IMG/VR virus record: IMGVR_UViG_2651869695_000011
Reading direction: 5' to 3' (one strand)
Origin: a virus
Taxonomy: Duplodnaviria > Heunggongvirae > Uroviricota > Caudoviricetes
Length of the DNA stretch: 40,258 nt
Position numbers and translations under genes: made by a program. Below, one piece after another: positions 1-37,463 of this stretch (its first letter is position 1; each line of letters starts with the position of its first letter). The notes below the pieces were generated by a model. It did not search any database. It was not told where the DNA came from and worked only from the letters and a program-made list of their open reading frames with translations.

Positions 1-516
1 ATGAAATTTAAAAAATGTCTTCTGCCTGTGGCAATGTTAGCGTCATTCACTCTGGCAGGATGCCAGTCAAATGCTGATGATCATGCCGCCGATGTTTATC
101 AAACCGATCAACTGAATACCAAACAAGAAACTAAAACCGTTAATATTATTTCCATTCTTCCCGCAAAAGTTGCCGTAGACAACGCCCAAAATAAACGGAA
201 CGCACAAGCCTTCGGCGCGCTTATTGGCGCTGTCGCTGGCGGTGTTATCGGCCACAACGTCGGGTCTGGCAGCAATTCCGGAACGACAGCAGGTGCAGTT
301 GGCGGCGGAGCTGTTGGCGCAGCAGCGGGTTCTATGGTGAATGATAAAACCTTAGTGGAAGGTGTTTCTTTAACATATCAGGAAGGCACCAAAGTGTATA
401 CCTCCACCCAGGTGGGTAAAGAGTGCCAGTTTACGACAGGTTTAGCCGTTGTTATTACCACGACGTATAACGAAACGCGTATTCAGCCAAATACCAAATG
501 TCCTGAAAAGAGCTAA
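1..516 (+). CDS. Outer-membrane lipoprotein with glycine-zipper segment (SlyB/PCP-like); host flank
   Basis: ATG at window position 1; signal peptide MKFKKCLLPVAMLASFTLAG followed by lipobox Cys (LAGC); Gly/Ala-rich zipper GALIGAVAGGVIGHNVG...GGGAVGAAAG. Family assignment from recalled motifs only. Confidence 0.6.
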   Translation: MKFKKCLLPVAMLASFTLAGCQSNADDHAADVYQTDQLNTKQETKTVNIISILPAKVAVDNAQNKRNAQAFGALIGAVAGGVIGHNVGSGSNSGTTAGAVGGGAVGAAAGSMVNDKTLVEGVSLTYQEGTKVYTSTQVGKECQFTTGLAVVITTTYNETRIQPNTKCPEKS

Positions 517-531
517 TAATCAGGAGGAGTC

Positions 532-1071
532 ATGAAGAAAGTTTTTCTTTGCGCCATCTTAGCCTCCTTAAGCTATCCGGCTATCGCCTCATCATTGCAG
601 GATCAACTCTCGGCTGTCGCAGAAGCGGAACAGCAAGGTAAAAATGAAGAGCAAAGGCAGCATGACGAATGGGTCGCGGAGCGCAACAGGGAAATCCAGC
701 AAGAGAAGCAACGTCGCGCAAACGCCCAGGCCGCGGCTAATAAAAGAGCGGCAACGGCAGCAGCGAATAAGAAAGCTCGTCAGGATAAACTGGACGCCGA
801 AGCCACTGCGGACAAAAAACGCGATCAAAGTTATGAAGATGAGCTACGCAGCTTAGAGATTCAGAAACAAAAACTGGCGCTGGCGAAAGAAGAAGCCCGC
901 GTTAAGCGCGAAAACGAATTTATCGATCAGGAACTGAAGCACAAAGCTGCGCAAACCGATGTGGTGCAATCTGAAGCTGACGCAAACAGGAATATGACTG
1001 AAGGCGGTCGCGATCTGATGAAAAGCGTGGGCAAAGCAGAAGAGAATAAATCAGATAGCTGGTTTAACTAA
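532..1071 (+). CDS. Exported coiled-coil/low-complexity protein (signal peptide); host flank
   Basis: SD AGGAGG 6 nt upstream of ATG; N-terminal signal peptide MKKVFLCAILASLSYPAIA; K/E/Q/A-rich body; followed by a terminator. Confidence 0.5.
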   Translation: MKKVFLCAILASLSYPAIASSLQDQLSAVAEAEQQGKNEEQRQHDEWVAERNREIQQEKQRRANAQAAANKRAATAAANKKARQDKLDAEATADKKRDQSYEDELRSLEIQKQKLALAKEEARVKRENEFIDQELKHKAAQTDVVQSEADANRNMTEGGRDLMKSVGKAEENKSDSWFN

Positions 1072-1141: not shown

Positions 1142-1288
1142 TCATTCATAGTGCAGGGTCAAATCATTCCCACTCAATTATTTACGGCAGCCATAACCAA
1201 TTGAGTGATAACATTTTTCCAAAAACTAATTTTTTTAGTACCGTTTTATATACCGTCACCGGAAATCAGTACCATGAAAAATGCCATG

Positions 1289-6024: not shown

Positions 6025-6090
6025 ATTACCTAAAAAACCACATATGGATAGATAACCCATAAATACGAACAGATATTACCTTTCAGGTAA
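6025..6090. promoter_or_regulatory. Bipartite upstream element of the tailspike operon: ATTACC-TAAAAAACCACATATG plus palindrome TTACCTTTCAGGTAA
   Basis: Perfect 6+3+6 palindrome at 6076-6090; AACCACATATG at 6036-6046; same arrangement recurs upstream of portal and early-gene operons. Confidence 0.45.
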
Positions 6091-6129
6091 TTCGCAAAAC
6101 GTGCTGGATAGCAAACAAATTATTTGCTA

Positions 6130-6145
6130 CTGTATAAATATACAG
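6130..6145 (+). promoter_or_regulatory. LexA (SOS) box
   Basis: CTGTATAAATATACAG matches CTGT-N8-ACAG with AT-rich core (consensus TACTGTATATATATACAGTA); 8 nt upstream of SD GGAG and ATG at 6167. Confidence 0.7.
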
Positions 6146-6166
6146 TTATTACATGGAGAAGATAAG

Positions 6167-6424
6167 ATGCAGCAGTATCACTATCCACTGGAAGACGGAT
6201 TTACCGAAAGGATTCACACGCCGGGAGGCGTCAGGTCACTGGTGGAGGGATCGCACTTGATGAAATTACTCCGGGATCTCGATAAGGATGGATTTAATGT
6301 CGATGGCCCACTTGCCGAACTGACTGCACTGATTAACTACGTCACCAGCTCACAGATGTCTATGCGGGATCTGCAAACACATCTCGACTATTGTGCCGAA
6401 CAATTACGAAAACAAACCAGATAA
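6167..6424 (+). CDS. Small antirepressor-like protein (stand-alone paralogue of the Bro-N protein C-terminal domain), LexA-controlled
   Basis: 85 aa; SD GGAG at 6154-6157; aligns with last ~70 aa of the 6740-7450 product (shared IH.P.GV..L.E.S.LM.LL..L..DG..V.G..AELT...Y......RD.QTH..Y). Upstream GTG 6101 extension rejected. Confidence 0.5.
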   Translation: MQQYHYPLEDGFTERIHTPGGVRSLVEGSHLMKLLRDLDKDGFNVDGPLAELTALINYVTSSQMSMRDLQTHLDYCAEQLRKQTR

Positions 6425-6560
6425 GATTTGAAATTACCAAGAGGAGTGCTTATATTTACCTTTGCGGTAAATTTACATCGCACTCCTCTTGTGCCATAGT
6501 AATCGGGCACTGGCAAAATCCAGTGCCGGGATTGGCGTCCCGAGTTACTAAGTGGCGCAT

Positions 6561-6583
6561 ACCACGCCAGACGTGGTTTTTTT
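6561..6583 (+). terminator. Rho-independent terminator
   Basis: ACCACG-CCAGA-CGTGGT hairpin followed by TTTTTTT. Confidence 0.55.
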
Positions 6584-6739
6584 ATGCGTTAAGCACAGCC
6601 ATATCCGAATTATGGTGGGCTGGGCAGGGGTCCGAAAGGACGCCGGTACCACTTAGGCCGGTACGCCAACCTTGTCCAGTTCACCACCAGTAATTGGCGT
6701 TGCGGTGGTGATTAAAATCACTAAGTGGAGATAACCACC

Positions 6740-7450
6740 ATGGCTAATGCTCAAACTGCCATCTTCAAATTTGAATCTGTTAACCCTATCCGTTCCATCA
6801 TTATCGATGGCCAACCATGGTTTGTAGCCCAAGACGTTTGTAGTGCGCTGCGTATCCAAAACGTCACCCAAGCACTTGAAAAACTGGATGATGATGAAAG
6901 GTCTATGTTCAACATAGGGCATGAACATCGTGCAATTTTTGACAGCCGAGTAAAAGAGATCAACATCATCTCCGAGTCAGGCCTCTACACACTGATCCTC
7001 CGCTGCCGCGATGCGGTGACACCAGGCACTATCCCCTACCGCTTTCGTAAATGGGTTACAGGTGAGGTTCTTCCTCAGATCCGCCGCACCGGAAGTTACA
7101 TTAAAAACTCGCTCCCGCAGGAAGAACGCATAAAGATGGTTGCCGACCAGGTAGCCAACGCCACAGCATCAGCAGTGATGCAGGCAATGAAGATAGAGAA
7201 CAAAACCTACAGTGCCCCACTGAAGCCCGGCTACCGCAGTCTGATTCATTCTCCGTCTGGTGTTCTCGGCCTGACGGAGAACTCACTGCTGATGAATTTG
7301 CTGAACCAGTTGCAGGAAGACGGGCACGATGTATCGGGCGCGGCGGCGGAGCTGACCACCATGTTTTGCTACATCGTTGGTGTGAGCAAATGCCTGCGTG
7401 ATATCCAGACTCACGCGGAGTACATCAACGACAAGGCTGGGTTCTTCTGA
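6740..7450 (+). CDS. Bro-N domain antirepressor-family protein
   Basis: Classical Bro-N signature (FKFESVNPIRSIIIDGQPWFVAQDVCSAL...LDDDE...ISESGLYTLIL...FRKWVTGEVLPQIRRTG); SD GGAG 9 nt upstream of ATG 6740; C-terminal domain paralogous to 6167-6424. Confidence 0.75.
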   Translation: MANAQTAIFKFESVNPIRSIIIDGQPWFVAQDVCSALRIQNVTQALEKLDDDERSMFNIGHEHRAIFDSRVKEINIISESGLYTLILRCRDAVTPGTIPYRFRKWVTGEVLPQIRRTGSYIKNSLPQEERIKMVADQVANATASAVMQAMKIENKTYSAPLKPGYRSLIHSPSGVLGLTENSLLMNLLNQLQEDGHDVSGAAAELTTMFCYIVGVSKCLRDIQTHAEYINDKAGFF

Positions 7451-7597: not shown

Positions 7598-7777
7598 ATG
7601 CGAAACGAAAAATTGCAGATGCGTAGAGCGCAAGCTGCCGCAAGACGTTCTTTCAATGGAAGCGTAGAGTACGTAAAAGTTACTATGACAAAAGATCACG
7701 CAAGTCGCGTATCCCGAGCTTTCTTTGATTCTCGTAACAATAAGGAAAATTATGAGTTCGTCTGCGTCGCAGAATGA
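7598..7777 (+). CDS. Small basic protein (59 aa), possible DNA-binding or antitoxin-like partner
   Basis: Not in ORF track (below size cutoff); good SD TGAGGTAA 6 nt upstream of ATG; Arg-rich N-terminus; 3' end overlaps start of next gene in a different frame. Confidence 0.3.
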   Translation: MRNEKLQMRRAQAAARRSFNGSVEYVKVTMTKDHASRVSRAFFDSRNNKENYEFVCVAE

Positions 7778-8297
7778 TAAAAATCAAATTGTCAGATATA
7801 AGGGTCGAGTATTGCATACGCAAAATTTCTCGGCCCTTTGTGCATCTGATCTTGAGCTGAAGAAAGTATCTGATGCCTTTACCCAGTATTGGAAAACGGG
7901 ATACCATCCATCTCTTGGTAAAGATGCTGCATTTGCTCGTCCGACAGAAATGCTTAAACTAAATGTCAGGCATACTCATGTCGATAACCAAGACTATATT
8001 CCAGAAGATAGTGATAAAAAACACACTGGTAAAAAATCATCTTGGGATGCATGGAAAAATATAGCGTCTGTGCAAGTAAAATGCATACCAACAAGTGATT
8101 GCTTTTTAGTTTATTCGGTAAATCACAATCGTGATGCGCTGGTTATGTTTTTTGTTGACGCAGATGCCCACAACATAACTGAGCAAGAAGAGTTTAAAGA
8201 GGAAGCAATCACTATCAGTTATCAATTCTTTGAGAAAACAAAAACAGAACCAATGCCTTTAGAAGAAGATCTTTTTTCTGATAAATGGAAGGAATAA
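7752..8297 (+). CDS. Hypothetical moron protein (181 aa), no family recognised
   Basis: SD AAGGA 7 nt upstream of ATG 7752; AT-rich codon usage unlike neighbouring virion genes; followed by a strong terminator. Confidence 0.5.
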   Translation: MSSSASQNDKNQIVRYKGRVLHTQNFSALCASDLELKKVSDAFTQYWKTGYHPSLGKDAAFARPTEMLKLNVRHTHVDNQDYIPEDSDKKHTGKKSSWDAWKNIASVQVKCIPTSDCFLVYSVNHNRDALVMFFVDADAHNITEQEEFKEEAITISYQFFEKTKTEPMPLEEDLFSDKWKE

Positions 8298-25033: not shown

Positions 25034-25113
25034 ATTATTACCAATTTAACCACATATGATTTATTTATCGTAGATAGTTGACATTTAACGCATGAATTAT
25101 TACCTTTAAGGTA
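25034..25113. promoter_or_regulatory. Bipartite upstream element of the head operon / tRNA promoter region: ATTACC-AATTTAACCACATATG, TTGACA, palindrome TTACCTTTAAGGTAA
   Basis: AACCACATATG at 25047-25057; TTGACA at 25077-25082; palindrome at 25099-25113. Confidence 0.45.
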
Positions 25114-25436: not shown

Positions 25437-25513
25437 GTGGCATTAGCTCAGTTGGACAGAGCAACCGCCTTCTAAGCGGTTGGTCGCAGGTTCGAATCCT
25501 GCATGCCGCGCCA
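25437..25513 (+). tRNA. tRNA-Arg (anticodon UCU)
   Basis: Cloverleaf by hand: acceptor GTGGCAT/ATGCCGC (one U-G pair), D-arm GCTC-AGTTGGACA-GAGC, anticodon arm ACCGC-CTTCTAA-GCGGT, T-arm GCAGG-TTCGAAT-CCTGC, discriminator G, encoded CCA; close to enterobacterial argU. Confidence 0.85.
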
Positions 25514-25711: not shown

Positions 25712-26068
25712 ATGAGCGACCAGCAAATCGAAAAAGAAATCGTTGAGAAAGGCAAAACCGCTCCGCGAGTTACGCCTCAATATATCGAAAGCATCATTCT
25801 TGAAGAGCATTTCTTTACTGCTTATGACGGCATTCGTGCTGCCAATATGGGCGTTGGCGATTCATGGACAGCGCATAAATCTACAGACCTCCTGACTTTC
25901 TGCGTATTGGTACTGAAGAATGGCTTCACCGTCACCGGAGAGAGTGCCTGTGCAAGTCCGGAAAACTTTGATGCGGAAATTGGTCGGAAGATTGCCCGGC
26001 AGAATGCTGTAAACAAAATCTGGATGCTCGAAGGTTACTTGCTGAAGCAGAAGTTAAGCGAGCAATAA
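25712..26068 (+). CDS. Hypothetical moron protein (118 aa) between tRNA and terminase
   Basis: SD AAGGTGAG 3 nt upstream of ATG; opposite strand to flanking late genes; bracketed by terminators. Confidence 0.55.
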   Translation: MSDQQIEKEIVEKGKTAPRVTPQYIESIILEEHFFTAYDGIRAANMGVGDSWTAHKSTDLLTFCVLVLKNGFTVTGESACASPENFDAEIGRKIARQNAVNKIWMLEGYLLKQKLSEQ

Positions 26069-28224: not shown

Positions 28225-28301
28225 CATAACCACCGTGGTAATAGTTACCGTTGTGGTAATAGTACCATGCAAAATAAAGCCGCCATAGTTGGCGGCAGTA
28301 T

Positions 28302-32075: not shown

Positions 32076-32152
32076 TTACCTCTGAGGTAATTAAAAACCA
32101 CATAAGACACGAAATCAATAGATTTTAGAATATTTTATTACCCATAAGGTAA
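32076..32152. promoter_or_regulatory. Intergenic regulatory region with two TTACC-N5-GGTAA palindromes and AACCACATAAG
   Basis: TTACCTCTGAGGTAA 32076-32090, AACCACATAAG 32096-32106, TTACCCATAAGGTAA 32138-32152; only sizeable gap in the early minus-strand operon. Confidence 0.45.
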
Positions 32153-33979: not shown

Positions 33980-34082
33980 GGTAAGCCCTGTTATTAGTAT
34001 TGGGATTACGGTCATTTTGTGCTGACACAAAAAAAAGATCAACCAGATTTGGTTTTTTATTACCTTTGAGGTACGAATAGAT

Positions 34083-34129: not shown

Positions 34130-34360
34130 TCATGAGTAGAAGAAGTATGCCAGTTCTGCTTTTGAGCGCAGCCATTGTCTTGTTTTACAGGCTTTAAAAA
34201 GCCCATCCATCAATACCTTACCTGGCATTTTGCGCTTACCTGTTAAGTGAGTCTGGATATAGTGACTCGTCGTTCCGGCTTCCTGTGCGAAGGCTTCACG
34301 CTCATCCGGAGTAAGTGCAAGCCAGTGCTTTTTGAAATCGAAATGTCCGTTATCGCTCAT
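34130..34360 (-). CDS. Cro-like HTH regulator
   Basis: 76 aa with HTH-like segment (EAFAQEAGTTSHYIQTHLTGKR); divergent from repressor across the operator cluster; candidate promoter TTGTTA-N17-TATTAT upstream. Confidence 0.5.
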   Translation of the reverse strand: MSDNGHFDFKKHWLALTPDEREAFAQEAGTTSHYIQTHLTGKRKMPGKVLMDGLFKACKTRQWLRSKAELAYFFYS

Positions 34361-34396
34361 AGCTATTGCCTGATATTTATTTCAGATAATAAATAT

Positions 34397-34459
34397 TCAC
34401 CCATAAGGTAACAAAAATCAAGGATAGTTACCTATGGGGTGCATTTACCTGTTGGGTAA
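34397..34459. promoter_or_regulatory. O_R-like tripartite operator between cro-like and repressor genes
   Basis: TCACCCATAAGGTAA (34397-34411), TTACCTATGGGGTGC (34428-34442), TTACCTGTTGGGTAA (34445-34459); one overlaps the candidate cro promoter. Confidence 0.6.
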
Positions 34460-34514: not shown

Positions 34515-35099
34515 ATGAAAAGTATCCAGGACGTCCGCAGGCAAAATCTCAACGACTTGATCGACCGTGAATTCAATGGTGTTCAGACGCGGATGGCAGA
34601 AAAACTTGGAACTCAGGCAAATCTGGTAAACCGCTGGGCTCTTGGCAAGAAGGTTATCGGCGACCAGGTTGCGCGAAAAATTGAAGCTGCCGCCAATAAG
34701 CCCCGTAACTGGCTTGATATCGATCGCTCGCTTTCTCAGGAAGGTTTTCAGCCTGTCGGCCCAAGCGACATTGGTCAGCTGGCGGCCCACAACCTGGAAC
34801 GCTGGATGAGCGAAAGCCGCGACCTTTCAACACAGGGAAAACTTCACCGCGCATCCGGAGTCGCCCAGGTGACAATCAGCCGCCTGTTAAACAATGAGGT
34901 CAGCGTTTCCATTTCCACCCTGGAGAATGTTGCATCTGCATTCGGGCGTCACGGATATGAACTACTGATTCACCCGCACGACCCTGCAACTATCAACTAT
35001 GACCGCTCGCGCTACGCATTGTTACCTGAAACCGAGAAAGCAAAGATCGAAAGTTACATTGAATTTGTCATCAACCAGAACGAAAAAAACAAACAATAA
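34515..35099 (+). CDS. Prophage repressor, two HTH-like segments, no recognisable S24 peptidase/autocleavage domain
   Basis: HTH-like segments at about residues 20-65 and 110-155; no Ala-Gly/Ser-Lys LexA-like C-domain; no SD within 12 nt of ATG (possibly leaderless). Confidence 0.6.
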   Translation: MKSIQDVRRQNLNDLIDREFNGVQTRMAEKLGTQANLVNRWALGKKVIGDQVARKIEAAANKPRNWLDIDRSLSQEGFQPVGPSDIGQLAAHNLERWMSESRDLSTQGKLHRASGVAQVTISRLLNNEVSVSISTLENVASAFGRHGYELLIHPHDPATINYDRSRYALLPETEKAKIESYIEFVINQNEKNKQ

Positions 35100-35120
35100 A
35101 ATCATATTTTTCAGTAAGTA

Positions 35121-35146
35121 AGCCGCCAAATGGCGGCTTTTTTATT
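35121..35146 (+). terminator. Rho-independent terminator after repressor gene
   Basis: AGCCGCC-AAAT-GGCGGCT followed by TTTTTTATT. Confidence 0.65.
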
Positions 35147-35156
35147 GCCAGATAGA

Positions 35157-35233
35157 TTACCTGTTGGGTGATTTTTTTAACTCATATCTATTGACATCAA
35201 ACCAGATACGAATAATTATTACCTCAACGGTAG
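35157..35233 (+). promoter_or_regulatory. O_L/P_L-like operator-promoter driving the recombination/xis/methylase operon
   Basis: TTACCTGTTGGGTGA (35157-35171); -35 TTGACA (35191-35196), 17-bp spacer, -10 AATTAT (35214-35219); TTACCTCAACGGTAG (35219-35233) over the start site. Confidence 0.55.
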
Positions 35234-35407: not shown

Positions 35408-35707
35408 ATGAACGTTAATCAGCAGAAAAATCTTCAAAAAATCATGCTGGCATTCGACAAGGACTACCGCCTGTCAGAACAGCTATATGACCGACAAGTT
35501 GAACTGATTGAGAGCATCCGACTTCATCAACTGTCCTCAACTTTCGACGTTGTAACAGGCAAAGGCGTTCGTCAGGAAGTACTGGAGGCTGCTAAAGACA
35601 GCCCTGAGTTCGAAGAACTGATGGATGCCTACCGGCGCGAGGCAATGGCAATTATCGCCCGCTGGGATCTGGCGGATCAGCTTGATGGACAGAGGGACGC
35701 GGCATGA
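35408..35707 (+). CDS. Hypothetical protein preceding exonuclease (possible recombination accessory factor)
   Basis: SD GGGAGGG upstream of ATG 35408; ATGA overlap with exonuclease gene. Confidence 0.4.
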   Translation: MNVNQQKNLQKIMLAFDKDYRLSEQLYDRQVELIESIRLHQLSSTFDVVTGKGVRQEVLEAAKDSPEFEELMDAYRREAMAIIARWDLADQLDGQRDAA

Positions 35708-36525
35708 AAGCGGGAATTTATTTCGACATCAGCAACGAAGACTACCACGCCGGTGACGGCGTGAGTAAATCGCAACTGGACATGGTTGCCAAGAATCCGG
35801 CGCTTCTTAAATGGGTTCAGGCAGCACCAGAAGACGAAGAGAAAAAGTCTGCACTGGATATGGGAACCGCATTGCACTGTCTGCTTCTGGAGCCTGGAGA
35901 GTTCGACAAACGCTTCATTGTTTCACCGAAATTCGAACGTCGGACGAAACAAGGTAAAGCTGACGAAGAGGCATTTCTTCGTGATATGGCGGATATGGGG
36001 ATTACGGTACTTGATGCCGAGCAGTGGCGGAAACTGGAGCTGATGCGTGATAGCGCAATGGCTCACCCGGCGGCACGCTGGATGCTGGAAGCACCTGGTT
36101 ACTGCGAAGCATCAATGTACTGGAACGATGAAGATACTGGTGAGTTGTGCCGCATTCGTCCAGACAAATGGCTGAACGAGCACAACGTGATCGTCGACGT
36201 GAAAAAGGTTGCAGATATGGACCGTTTTGCACGCCACATCGAGGAATTCCGCTACCACGTGCAGGACGCAATGTACCGCGAAGGCGCAATGAGGGTTACT
36301 GGTCAGCCGCATGGTTTTTTCTTTCTTGCCGTGAGCGAAAGCATTGATTGTGGTCGATATCCGGTACGCGTGTTCGAGCTGGATGCGCCGGATGTCGATG
36401 CCGGGCACGCTCTGTTCCGCCGGGATCTGAATACCTATCACGAATGCCGCATCAACGATGAGTGGGGCGGAGTGGAAATTATTAAACGCCCTGACTGGGC
36501 ACGCAAACAGGATATGTACATATGA
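35704..36525 (+). CDS. PD-(D/E)xK-type exonuclease partner of the annealase (RecE/YqaJ-like)
   Basis: Position immediately upstream of the annealase with ATGA overlap; motif IRPDKW...VIVDVKKVAD (D...D.K). Confidence 0.55.
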   Translation: MKAGIYFDISNEDYHAGDGVSKSQLDMVAKNPALLKWVQAAPEDEEKKSALDMGTALHCLLLEPGEFDKRFIVSPKFERRTKQGKADEEAFLRDMADMGITVLDAEQWRKLELMRDSAMAHPAARWMLEAPGYCEASMYWNDEDTGELCRIRPDKWLNEHNVIVDVKKVADMDRFARHIEEFRYHVQDAMYREGAMRVTGQPHGFFFLAVSESIDCGRYPVRVFELDAPDVDAGHALFRRDLNTYHECRINDEWGGVEIIKRPDWARKQDMYI

Positions 36526-37463
36526 GCAACGACATCGCAAACATCAACGCACCAGTAGACACAGCAATCGCTGGAACTGCTGCAACTATTTTCAGCCCAG
36601 ACGGCTTGAACCAACTGATGAAATTCGCCGAGGTAATGGCGCAAAGCCGCGTAACGGTACCGGCGCACCTCGCCGGGAAACCAGCTGATTGCATGGCCGT
36701 GGCAATGCAGGCTGCGCAGTGGGGAATGAACCCGTTTGCCGTTGCTCAGAAAACCCATGTTGTGAACGGCACGCTAGGTTATGAAGCCCAATTAGTAAAC
36801 GCAGTTATCTCAACGATGTCGCCAACAAAAGATCGCATCAACTACGAGTGGTTCGGGCCGTGGGAACGCGTGATCGGTAAGTTTGTTGAGAAAACATCCA
36901 AAAACGGCAATCCATATATCGCACCAGGCTGGACTCTAAAAGACGAAGAAGGCTGCGGTGTTCGCGTATGGGCAACCATGAAGGGCGAGGATCAACCTCG
37001 AGTGCTTGAGTTAATGCTGTCTCAAGCACAGGTAAGAAACTCCACACTTTGGGCCAGTGATCCGAAACAACAACTCGCATACCTTGCGACAAAACGCTGG
37101 TCTCGCTTGCACTGTCCTGACGTAATCATGGGCGTCTACACACCAGACGAATTACAGGAAACGGCACCGCGCGTTGAGCGAGACATTACTCCGCAAATGA
37201 CCACTGCTGCGGGAATGAACAGTCTGATCAACGCTAAACAAGTGAAAAAGCCTGATGAGCAAACGCGTAAAGCGGATAGCCGTGATCCAGAAGAAATGCT
37301 GATGGCCTTTACCAGCGCAGCGATGAATTACAGCACTGTCTCCGAACTGGATAAAGCTTACAAATACATTGCACAAAAACTTTCAGATGATGACGAACTG
37401 CTGGCAAAAGCCACCGACGTTTACAGCGTTCGTCGGGAAGAATTAAACGAAACATCTATGTAA
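36522..37463 (+). CDS. Single-strand annealing protein, RecT/Red-beta family
   Basis: GMNPFAV and VERDITPQ segments parallel lambda Bet (GLNPW, ERDITPV); classic exo-annealase gene pair. Confidence 0.75.
   Translation: MSNDIANINAPVDTAIAGTAATIFSPDGLNQLMKFAEVMAQSRVTVPAHLAGKPADCMAVAMQAAQWGMNPFAVAQKTHVVNGTLGYEAQLVNAVISTMSPTKDRINYEWFGPWERVIGKFVEKTSKNGNPYIAPGWTLKDEEGCGVRVWATMKGEDQPRVLELMLSQAQVRNSTLWASDPKQQLAYLATKRWSRLHCPDVIMGVYTPDELQETAPRVERDITPQMTTAAGMNSLINAKQVKKPDEQTRKADSRDPEEMLMAFTSAAMNYSTVSELDKAYKYIAQKLSDDDELLAKATDVYSVRREELNETSM

Follow-up and report, generated by a model that had tools for sequence, protein, structure and literature searches.

How is a phage repressor that does not cleave itself taken off its operators when the DNA of the host is damaged? 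The closest described answer is the Rep–Ant antirepression switch of the phage SPC32H, reportedly worked out by Kim & Ryu in 2013 and by Kim et al. in 2016; SPC32H Rep has been crystallized with its antirepressor Ant (PDB entries 5D50 and 5D4Z). Indirect, SOS-linked induction by way of an antirepressor is already known, having been published since 2013–2016. In PMC9986798, SPC32H Rep is described as an N-terminal DNA-binding domain, a middle dimerization domain (MDD) and a C-terminal domain (CAD); the last, a p53-like ‘TetDloop’, is responsible both for tetramer formation and for contact with the antirepressor. According to PMC9638917, DNA binding needs the Rep tetramer, which the Ant tetramer splits into dimers. 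A preprint of 2025 likens this type of mechanism to other antirepressors.

A comparable logic is found in Gifsy-1 and Gifsy-3, whose uncleavable repressors GfoR and GfhR are countered by the LexA-controlled antirepressors GfoA and GfhA (Lemire et al. 2011, PMC3121763). Nearer to the phage considered here is vB_EcoP_ZX5 (ZX5), in which overexpression of ORF21 abolished free phage and lowered the mRNAs of holin and endolysin by 99.97–99.99% (Li et al. 2022, PMC9782041).

Here we describe the corresponding locus in the IMG/VR virus record IMGVR_UViG_2651869695_000011, the whole 40,258-nucleotide stretch of which is referred to below as the window. Our subject is an open reading frame of 194 codons with an ATG start, the product of which ends in HPHDPATINYDRSRYALLPETEKAKIESYIEFVINQNEKNKQ. 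It very probably encodes a non-cleavable immunity repressor, Rep, of the SPC32H family, induced by way of a LexA-controlled antirepressor, Ant. The features discussed are collected in table 1.

Table 1. Features of the immunity region, of the ant region and of the Rep protein. Positions are those of the window.
Feature	Position	Strand	Remarks
Perfect Rep-operator-like palindrome TTACCTTTCAGGTAA	6076..6090		Upstream of ant promoter; epsilon15 counterpart annotated as repressor site
LexA box TACTGTATAAATATACAGTT	6128..6147		Overlaps ant promoter region; 20 nt before ant ATG
ant, 85-aa antirepressor	6167..6424	+	Orthologue of SPC32H Ant
Second antirepressor, Bro-N domain and Ant-like C-terminus	6740..7450	+	Orthologue of ZX5 ORF4, 81%
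cro/cII-like regulator, 76 aa	34130..34360	-	Divergent from rep; phiV10 gp41; PHROG 35 ‘transcriptional repressor’
Sigma70-like early promoter TTGTTA-17-TATTAT (PR-like)	34386..34414	-	Reads into cro-like and replication genes
Operator-like palindrome TCACCCATAAGGTAA, 1 mismatch	34397..34411		In spacer of leftward early promoter; conserved in 9 phages
Middle operator-like site TTACCTATGGGGTGC, 2 mismatches	34428..34442		Position conserved in related phages
Perfect operator palindrome TTACCTGTTGGGTAA	34445..34459		Immediately precedes the promoter-like block conserved before rep
rep, lysogeny repressor	34515..35099	+	194 aa, SPC32H-Rep type
Rep N-terminal DNA-binding domain, ~aa 1–70	34515..34724	+	Pfam, model helices; DNA-binding role taken from SPC32H Rep
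Rep middle domain, ~aa 86–152, HTH_3-like fold	34770..34970	+	Pfam 106–147, alignment to 5D4Z/5D50
Rep C-terminal domain, ~aa 153–194 (CAD/TetDloop counterpart)	34971..35096	+	Alignment to 5D50_A through residue 190; boundaries are an estimate
Intrinsic terminator ending rep transcript	35120..35139	+	Predicted; annotated in phiV10
Operator-like palindrome TTACCTGTTGGGTGA	35157..35171		Upstream of PL-like promoter
Sigma70-like promoter TTGACA-17-AATTAT (PL-like), 10/12 matches, strong	35191..35219	+	Reads into gp39/gp38/recE/recT/xis
Operator-like palindrome TTACCTCAACGGTAG	35219..35233		Abuts -10 of PL-like promoter

Identity and distribution of Rep

The window covers a phage genome in full, circularly permuted, with an attP core, ATTGAGTGGGAATGATT, at 1162–1178 and the integrase gene placed at its right end. 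The 1.5 kb surrounding rep is 97.9% identical to the DNA of Escherichia phage phiV10 and similarly close (97–98%) to that of a set of E. coli podophages related to it. Epsilon15-like phages (genus Uetakevirus) of Enterobacter, Klebsiella and Salmonella match less well. To judge by these matches, the window is the genome of a phiV10/epsilon15-like (Uetakevirus) temperate podophage. Its accessory ORFs at 1–516, 532–1071, 7725–8297 and 25712–26068 gave no PADLOC matches to defence systems.

Rep is 100% identical to gp40 of phiV10 and to ORF21 of vB_EcoP_ZX5. The GenBank record of phiV10 describes PhiV10p40 as a ‘putative transcriptional repressor’ with two helix-turn-helix motifs (PF01381), similar to the putative repressor epsilon15p38. 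Other labels are less informative: RefSeq calls the gene product only a ‘helix-turn-helix domain-containing protein’, and the record of phage BP9 names the counterpart a ‘plasmid maintenance system antidote protein VapI’. A phmmer search against the PDB matched residues 1–190 of Rep to residues 2–197 of the SPC32H chain 5D50_A, ‘Repressor’ (E = 4e-42), and the C-terminal half also to 5D4Z; by tblastn the SPC32H rep gene (KC911856) shows 41.8% identity. Rep is a full-length orthologue of SPC32H Rep, at 42% identity. The protein, its two HTH motifs and its function as a repressor are thus already on record in GenBank, in the PDB and in published work. How widespread is it? The rep region is present at 95% identity or more in 539 of 5,426 complete E. 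coli genomes (~10%).

Domain architecture of Rep

The original prediction had read two HTH-like segments in this protein and a C-terminus without LexA-like features, and had named a domain search and a structure prediction as checks. Pfam places HTH_3 in two stretches of Rep, the best being residues 106–147 (E = 1.2e-9); a weaker match, of Cro/YdaS type, covers residues 21–61. An internal duplication of the two segments was considered and is ruled out, since BLASTP gave no alignment between them at E ≤ 100. The same Pfam search found no Peptidase_S24 (PF00717) in Rep even at E ≤ 1. None of the 86 homologues has an S24 domain either; all are of about 190–200 aa and carry HTH families only. Within the 194 residues of Rep there is neither an Ala-Gly nor a Cys-Gly dipeptide, and no cysteine whatever.

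The AlphaFold2 model of Rep, made from 23 homologues, is all-helical with a pLDDT of 77. It consists of two domains, residues 1–70 and 83–193, with a disordered linker at 74–83. The N-terminal helices (4–19, 24–31, 35–43 and 50–59) have a pLDDT of 83–90, while residues 157–162, in the C-terminal tetramerization segment, are modelled with low confidence (pLDDT < 50). The top Foldseek matches of this model are 5D50 and 5D4Z (‘Rep-Ant complex from Salmonella-temperate phage’), and those ranked below are all XRE-type HTH proteins; the catalytic domain of LexA or cI (S24 structures) is not among the fold matches. In the whole window no credible S24-like ORF was found with phmmer and the LexA and lambda cI queries; the one match, at 14 bits, is of chance level and comes from a reading frame on the strand opposite the tail fibre gene. 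Both segments and the C-terminus were therefore read correctly, and neither the domain search nor the structure prediction detected an S24 peptidase fold. We conclude that Rep is not one of the S24 self-cleaving repressors, as it has neither the S24 domain nor the cleavage-site features.

What roles might be played by the parts that it does have? The N-terminal HTH is the predicted DNA-binding domain. The second ‘HTH’ corresponds to the dimerization domain (MDD) of SPC32H Rep, and the C-terminal tail to its tetramerization and Ant-binding domain. Because these counterparts are the MDD and the CAD, neither the second HTH nor the tail is a leftover.

Operators and promoters

The palindrome TTACC-N5-GGTAA, allowing one mismatch, is matched 15 times in the window, compared with 0.67 matches expected by chance. 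The three-operator arrangement between rep and the cro-like gene (table 1) is conserved in nine related phages. Three sites in this gap and two beyond the rep terminator have the layout of lambda OR and OL. In SPC32H the motif recurs at syntenic places, and the GenBank record of epsilon15 annotates the equivalent palindromes as repressor-binding sites.

Further intergenic copies lie at 6076 (upstream of ant), 6456 (after ant) and 7523; at 25100, ahead of the structural operon; at 28227 and 28245, ahead of the terminase genes; at 32076 and 32138, between the replication and DUF1064 genes; and at 34060, after the cro-like gene. Since repressor sites are annotated in epsilon15 at a number of the corresponding places, this spread is already recorded at the level of annotation.

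Translation start and leader of rep

The start codon of rep is secure because the N-terminus MKSI is invariant in 23 Rep homologues. Is it preceded by a Shine–Dalgarno sequence? The original prediction had seen none, and in this too it is borne out. Between positions -17 and -4 the energy of the duplex with the anti-Shine–Dalgarno sequence is -2.4 kcal/mol, as against -6 to -10.7 kcal/mol for the majority of the other window genes, and the sole GAGG lies 14 nt upstream of the ATG. The absence is common to nine related phages, and the cro-like gene is likewise without a Shine–Dalgarno sequence.

A promoter scan found no consensus sigma70 promoter for rep, and the hexamer at -12 to -7 from the ATG, ATTTTC, is not -10-like. 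Footprinting across nine phages showed that the 20–35 nt before the ATG differ both in sequence and in length, whereas directly after the third operator, 35–50 nt upstream of the ATG, there is a conserved promoter-like block, GCTTTAAATTGAAT, which may carry a -35 element; no convincing -10 emerged from the same nine sequences. The position of the conserved block suggests a short leader without a Shine–Dalgarno sequence rather than a leaderless mRNA. A weak promoter, TTGCTT-17-GATTCA, followed by such a leader of 15–20 nt would fit best. Our guess, by analogy with lambda P_RM, is that Rep on the neighbouring operator may assist this promoter.

Ant and its LexA box

The product of ant matches the chain 5D50_E, ‘Anti-repressor protein’, with E = 1.4e-46; by tblastn it shares 87% identity with SPC32H Ant. 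The gene has a Shine–Dalgarno sequence, GGAGAAG, and is transcribed divergently from the tail fibre/tailspike gene, as is its counterpart in SPC32H. The box that precedes it, TACTGTATAAATATACAGTT, agrees with the 20-mer LexA consensus at 18 of 20 positions and is the sole such site in the window, none being expected by chance; its core is a perfect CTGT-N8-ACAG at 6130–6145. By itself the loose pattern (CTGT-N8-ACAG, no more than one mismatch) is not enriched, with 15 matches against 13.6 expected. Among these only the site at 6130 appears meaningful, and the 20-mer consensus confirms it. Comparison of the window with SPC32H, epsilon15 and ZX5 shows no variation in the core of the box, in the block GCTGGATAG or in the palindrome upstream. 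LexA presumably binds the box before ant.

The original prediction had connected indirect induction with a LexA-controlled antirepressor locus some 28 kb from the repressor. Such a locus, with its LexA box and ant, does lie at that distance, the ATG of ant being 28,348 nt from that of rep. The proposed fit also holds up, Rep and Ant being orthologues of the SPC32H pair, with the LexA box before ant.

How, then, would the switch operate? In the lysogen, the N-terminal HTH of Rep would bind the 15-bp TTACC-N5-GGTAA palindromes, three OR-like and two OL-like, and Rep on these sites would shut both early promoters; by the lambda analogy, it might also stimulate its own weak promoter. The middle, HTH_3-like domain would dimerize Rep and the C-terminal tail would tetramerize it. 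Since Rep has no S24 protease domain, RecA* could not trigger its self-cleavage. Instead, DNA damage would inactivate the host LexA on the box at the ant promoter, so that the 85-aa Ant is made. Ant would bind the C-terminal domains of Rep and convert the tetramer to two dimers that bind DNA poorly; with Rep released from the DNA, the lytic genes would fire.

We infer that the two proteins interact as the SPC32H pair does. Conservation with respect to SPC32H is unequal, Rep being only 42% identical and Ant 87%; the mechanism is carried over to this more distant Rep because it is an orthologue, the gene order is shared and a highly conserved Ant accompanies it.

A second antirepressor

Directly after ant there is a promoter at 6428–6456, abutted by a perfect palindrome at 6456–6470. 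It is followed by a match to the Hfq-binding sRNA isrK at 6507–6583 (67 bits), with a terminator, then by a match to the C4 antisense RNA at 6608–6691 (66 bits), and then by the ORF with the Bro-N domain. Both RNA matches exceed the gathering scores of Rfam. The last ~75 residues of the Bro-N protein are 43% identical to Ant (E = 2e-16). A scan of the window for LexA patterns showed no SOS box ahead of this gene, and SPC32H and epsilon15 are without the isrK/C4/Bro-N module. It was the ZX5 orthologue of this Bro-N protein, ORF4, and not the small Ant, that was tested as the antirepressor in the ZX5 study: its overexpression lowered prophage counts ~1000-fold and rep mRNA by 75% (PMC9782041).

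We tentatively propose, as a possibility to which we give somewhat less than even weight, that the Ant module is used twice, once as the free 85-aa Ant under LexA and once as the C-terminus of the Bro-N protein, behind isrK/C4-like RNAs and a palindrome-abutted promoter; that SOS and an RNA circuit converge in this way on Rep; and that the ~8 further intergenic palindromes give genome-wide repression. If this is true, SOS and an RNA circuit like those of P1 immI and Gifsy isrK would be two inputs on one non-cleavable repressor in the E. coli branch.

Alternative readings

Could Rep nevertheless be a repressor of the lambda cI/LexA type, inactivated by RecA-stimulated self-cleavage? Only its lambda-like position, divergent from a cro-like gene and with operators on its flanks, would speak for this. 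The absence of S24 from Rep at E ≤ 1 and from all 86 homologues, the all-helical model without matches to LexA or cI catalytic domains, the lack of an Ala-Gly or Cys-Gly site, the alignment of the whole length to SPC32H Rep, and the absence of a credible S24-like ORF from the window (by phmmer with LexA and lambda cI) refute it at the level of both sequence and fold, and we leave it practically no probability. Scarcely more can be given to the idea that the ORF is some other XRE-family regulator or an antitoxin rather than the immunity repressor, a reading that could appeal to the VapI label in the BP9 record and to a Pfam YdaS_toxin match that, at 21 bits, is below the gathering cut-off of 30. 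No toxin gene is adjacent, however; rep sits, as in lambda, between two divergent promoters under operator control; its product is orthologous to a repressor characterized both structurally and genetically; and the identical ZX5 protein silences the lytic genes when overexpressed (PMC9782041).

Two other alternatives leave the identity of Rep intact. The rep message might be leaderless, starting at the A of the ATG, as lambda cI is from P_RM. The lack of a Shine–Dalgarno sequence, conserved in nine related phages, speaks for this, but ATTTTC is not -10-like, the scan gave no consensus promoter, and the sequence immediately before the ATG is variable while the conserved block GCTTTAAATTGAAT stands further upstream, a layout that suits a weak promoter of the TTGCTT-17-GATTCA type with its ~15–20 nt leader. 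We consider a leaderless message improbable. Just as unlikely, in our estimate, is induction led by the Bro-N antirepressor, with the LexA-controlled small Ant secondary or redundant. The likeness of its C-terminus to Ant, the effects of its 81%-identical ZX5 orthologue on prophage counts and rep mRNA (PMC9782041), and the promoter, perfect palindrome and above-threshold RNA matches that precede it all favour such a role. Yet SPC32H and epsilon15 have the same Rep, Ant and LexA arrangement without this module, no SOS box was seen ahead of the gene, and a promoter repressed by Rep cannot start induction before the activity of Rep drops. If it is so repressed, the module is more suggestive of an amplifier or of a circuit for superinfection, and the small Ant under LexA is our preferred inducer.

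Significance

Antirepressor-based, LexA-linked induction being already in the literature, the assignment carries little weight as a discovery. It does serve as a useful sanity check, for the published SPC32H model was arrived at correctly from raw sequence. Of the whole picture, only the Bro-N antirepressor with its Ant-like domain may add to the published record. Correct annotation is nonetheless worthwhile: the immunity region occurs in ~10% of complete E. coli genomes (539/5,426), and its current labels are a generic RefSeq HTH name and, in one phage record, a VapI antidote. The phages of this group convert O-antigens, and they include the O157:H7-specific phiV10 and the O157 typing phages.

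Comparison with known systems

A close characterized relative is SPC32H, which belongs to the same genus (Uetakevirus) and has the same gene order; its Rep is homologous over the full length (E = 4e-42), and its Ant is a homologue as well (E = 1.4e-46). It shares the TTACC-N5-GGTAA motif, with three sites in the rep/cro gap and further sites after rep, as well as the LexA box before ant and the conserved palindrome upstream. The phage of the window differs in having the isrK/C4/Bro-N module and a YafO-like ORF by ant, both absent from SPC32H. Every sequence-level feature that defines the SPC32H Rep family was found in Rep or elsewhere in the window, and we assign Rep to that family. In phiV10 (gp40) and ZX5 (ORF21) the repressor protein is without any difference from that of the window.

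With the lambda cI region the locus has in common a repressor gene divergent from a cro-like gene with a tripartite operator between them, another group of operators beyond the repressor gene, controlling the other early operon, a weak repressor promoter and a repressor message without a Shine–Dalgarno sequence. It differs in that Rep has no S24 autocleavage domain and induction would be antirepressor-based. Oligomerization, too, would be of the Rep type, through an HTH-like dimerization domain and a p53-like tetramerization motif.

Gifsy-1 and Gifsy-3 likewise have a small, LexA-repressed antirepressor gene outside the immunity region, the product of which binds the repressor and frees it from the DNA (PMC3121763). 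They are lambdoid siphophages, however, and are likened to Rep/Ant by regulatory logic only. For the Gifsy proteins PMC3121763 reports interaction most probably as dimers; SPC32H Ant and Rep, by contrast, act as tetramers (PMC9638917).

P1 immI (c4-icd-ant) and the Gifsy-1 isrK-orf45-anrP locus bear comparison with the second antirepressor only. As in these, C4 and isrK matches stand directly upstream of the Bro-N gene, in a module whose promoter is adjoined by a palindrome resembling the repressor operators; the Bro-N antirepressor of the window differs from both in its C-terminal domain, a homologue of the SPC32H-type Ant.

Operator-like sites and switch genes

Are palindromes resembling the operator of Rep, the lysogeny repressor, confined to the immunity region? 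Copies of TTACC-N5-GGTAA also lie outside it (see table), in intergenic positions before or between operons: those of ant (the small antirepressor gene), the structural genes, the terminase and the replication/DUF1064 genes. SPC32H, a related phage, carries such outlying palindromes at syntenic places too, and the epsilon15 record labels several of the corresponding ones as repressor sites. The spread suggests that many promoters are directly repressed, or road-blocked, via these sites.

The divergent cro/cII-like gene has no Shine-Dalgarno sequence (ΔG −2.5 kcal/mol). Since rep likewise lacks one, both regulators of the switch are without it.

Features of the window
Feature	Position	Strand	Remarks
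Two accessory ORFs	1-1071	+	Glycine-zipper/TraT-like protein, 171 aa; DUF5384 protein, 179 aa
attP core	1162-1178		
Outlying operator-like palindromes	6076, 6456, 7523, 25100, 28227, 28245, 32076, 32138, 34060		TTACC-N5-GGTAA
Sigma70-like promoter	from 6428		TTGAAA-17-TATATT
Palindrome abutting promoter	6456-6470		Perfect TTACC-N5-GGTAA
isrK sRNA match	6507-6583		Rfam; with terminator
C4 antisense RNA match	6608-6691		Rfam
Bro-N antirepressor ORF	6740-7450		Bro-N domain
YafO-like ORF	7725-8297	+	190 aa
tRNA-Arg gene	25437-25513	+	Anticodon TCT
cro/cII-like gene	34130-34360	-	PHROG 35
RecE-like and RecT ORFs	35704-37463	+	4-nt overlap

Accessory and recombination genes

The two accessory ORFs, between the integrase gene and attP, are both found in TL-2011b and are absent from phiV10. 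They look like a moron, which would occupy the prophage end beside int. The YafO-like ORF, with the antirepressor module on one side and the end of the structural operon on the other, matches YafO_toxin weakly (E = 9e-6, barely over the gathering score); PADLOC returned no matches for it. The structural operon is preceded by a phage-encoded tRNA-Arg gene, an arrangement shared with SPC32H. RecT and the RecE-like PD-(D/E)XK exonuclease (DUF3799) are encoded here by two distinct ORFs; the phiV10 record has one fused 'recET' CDS.

The module 3′ of ant

Directly 3′ of ant follow, in order, the promoter with its palindrome, the isrK match with terminator, the C4 match and the Bro-N ORF, which over its C-terminal ~75 aa shares 43% identity with the small Ant. 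This module is missing from both SPC32H and epsilon15; similar layouts occur in P1 immI and in the isrK-anrP module of Gifsy-1.
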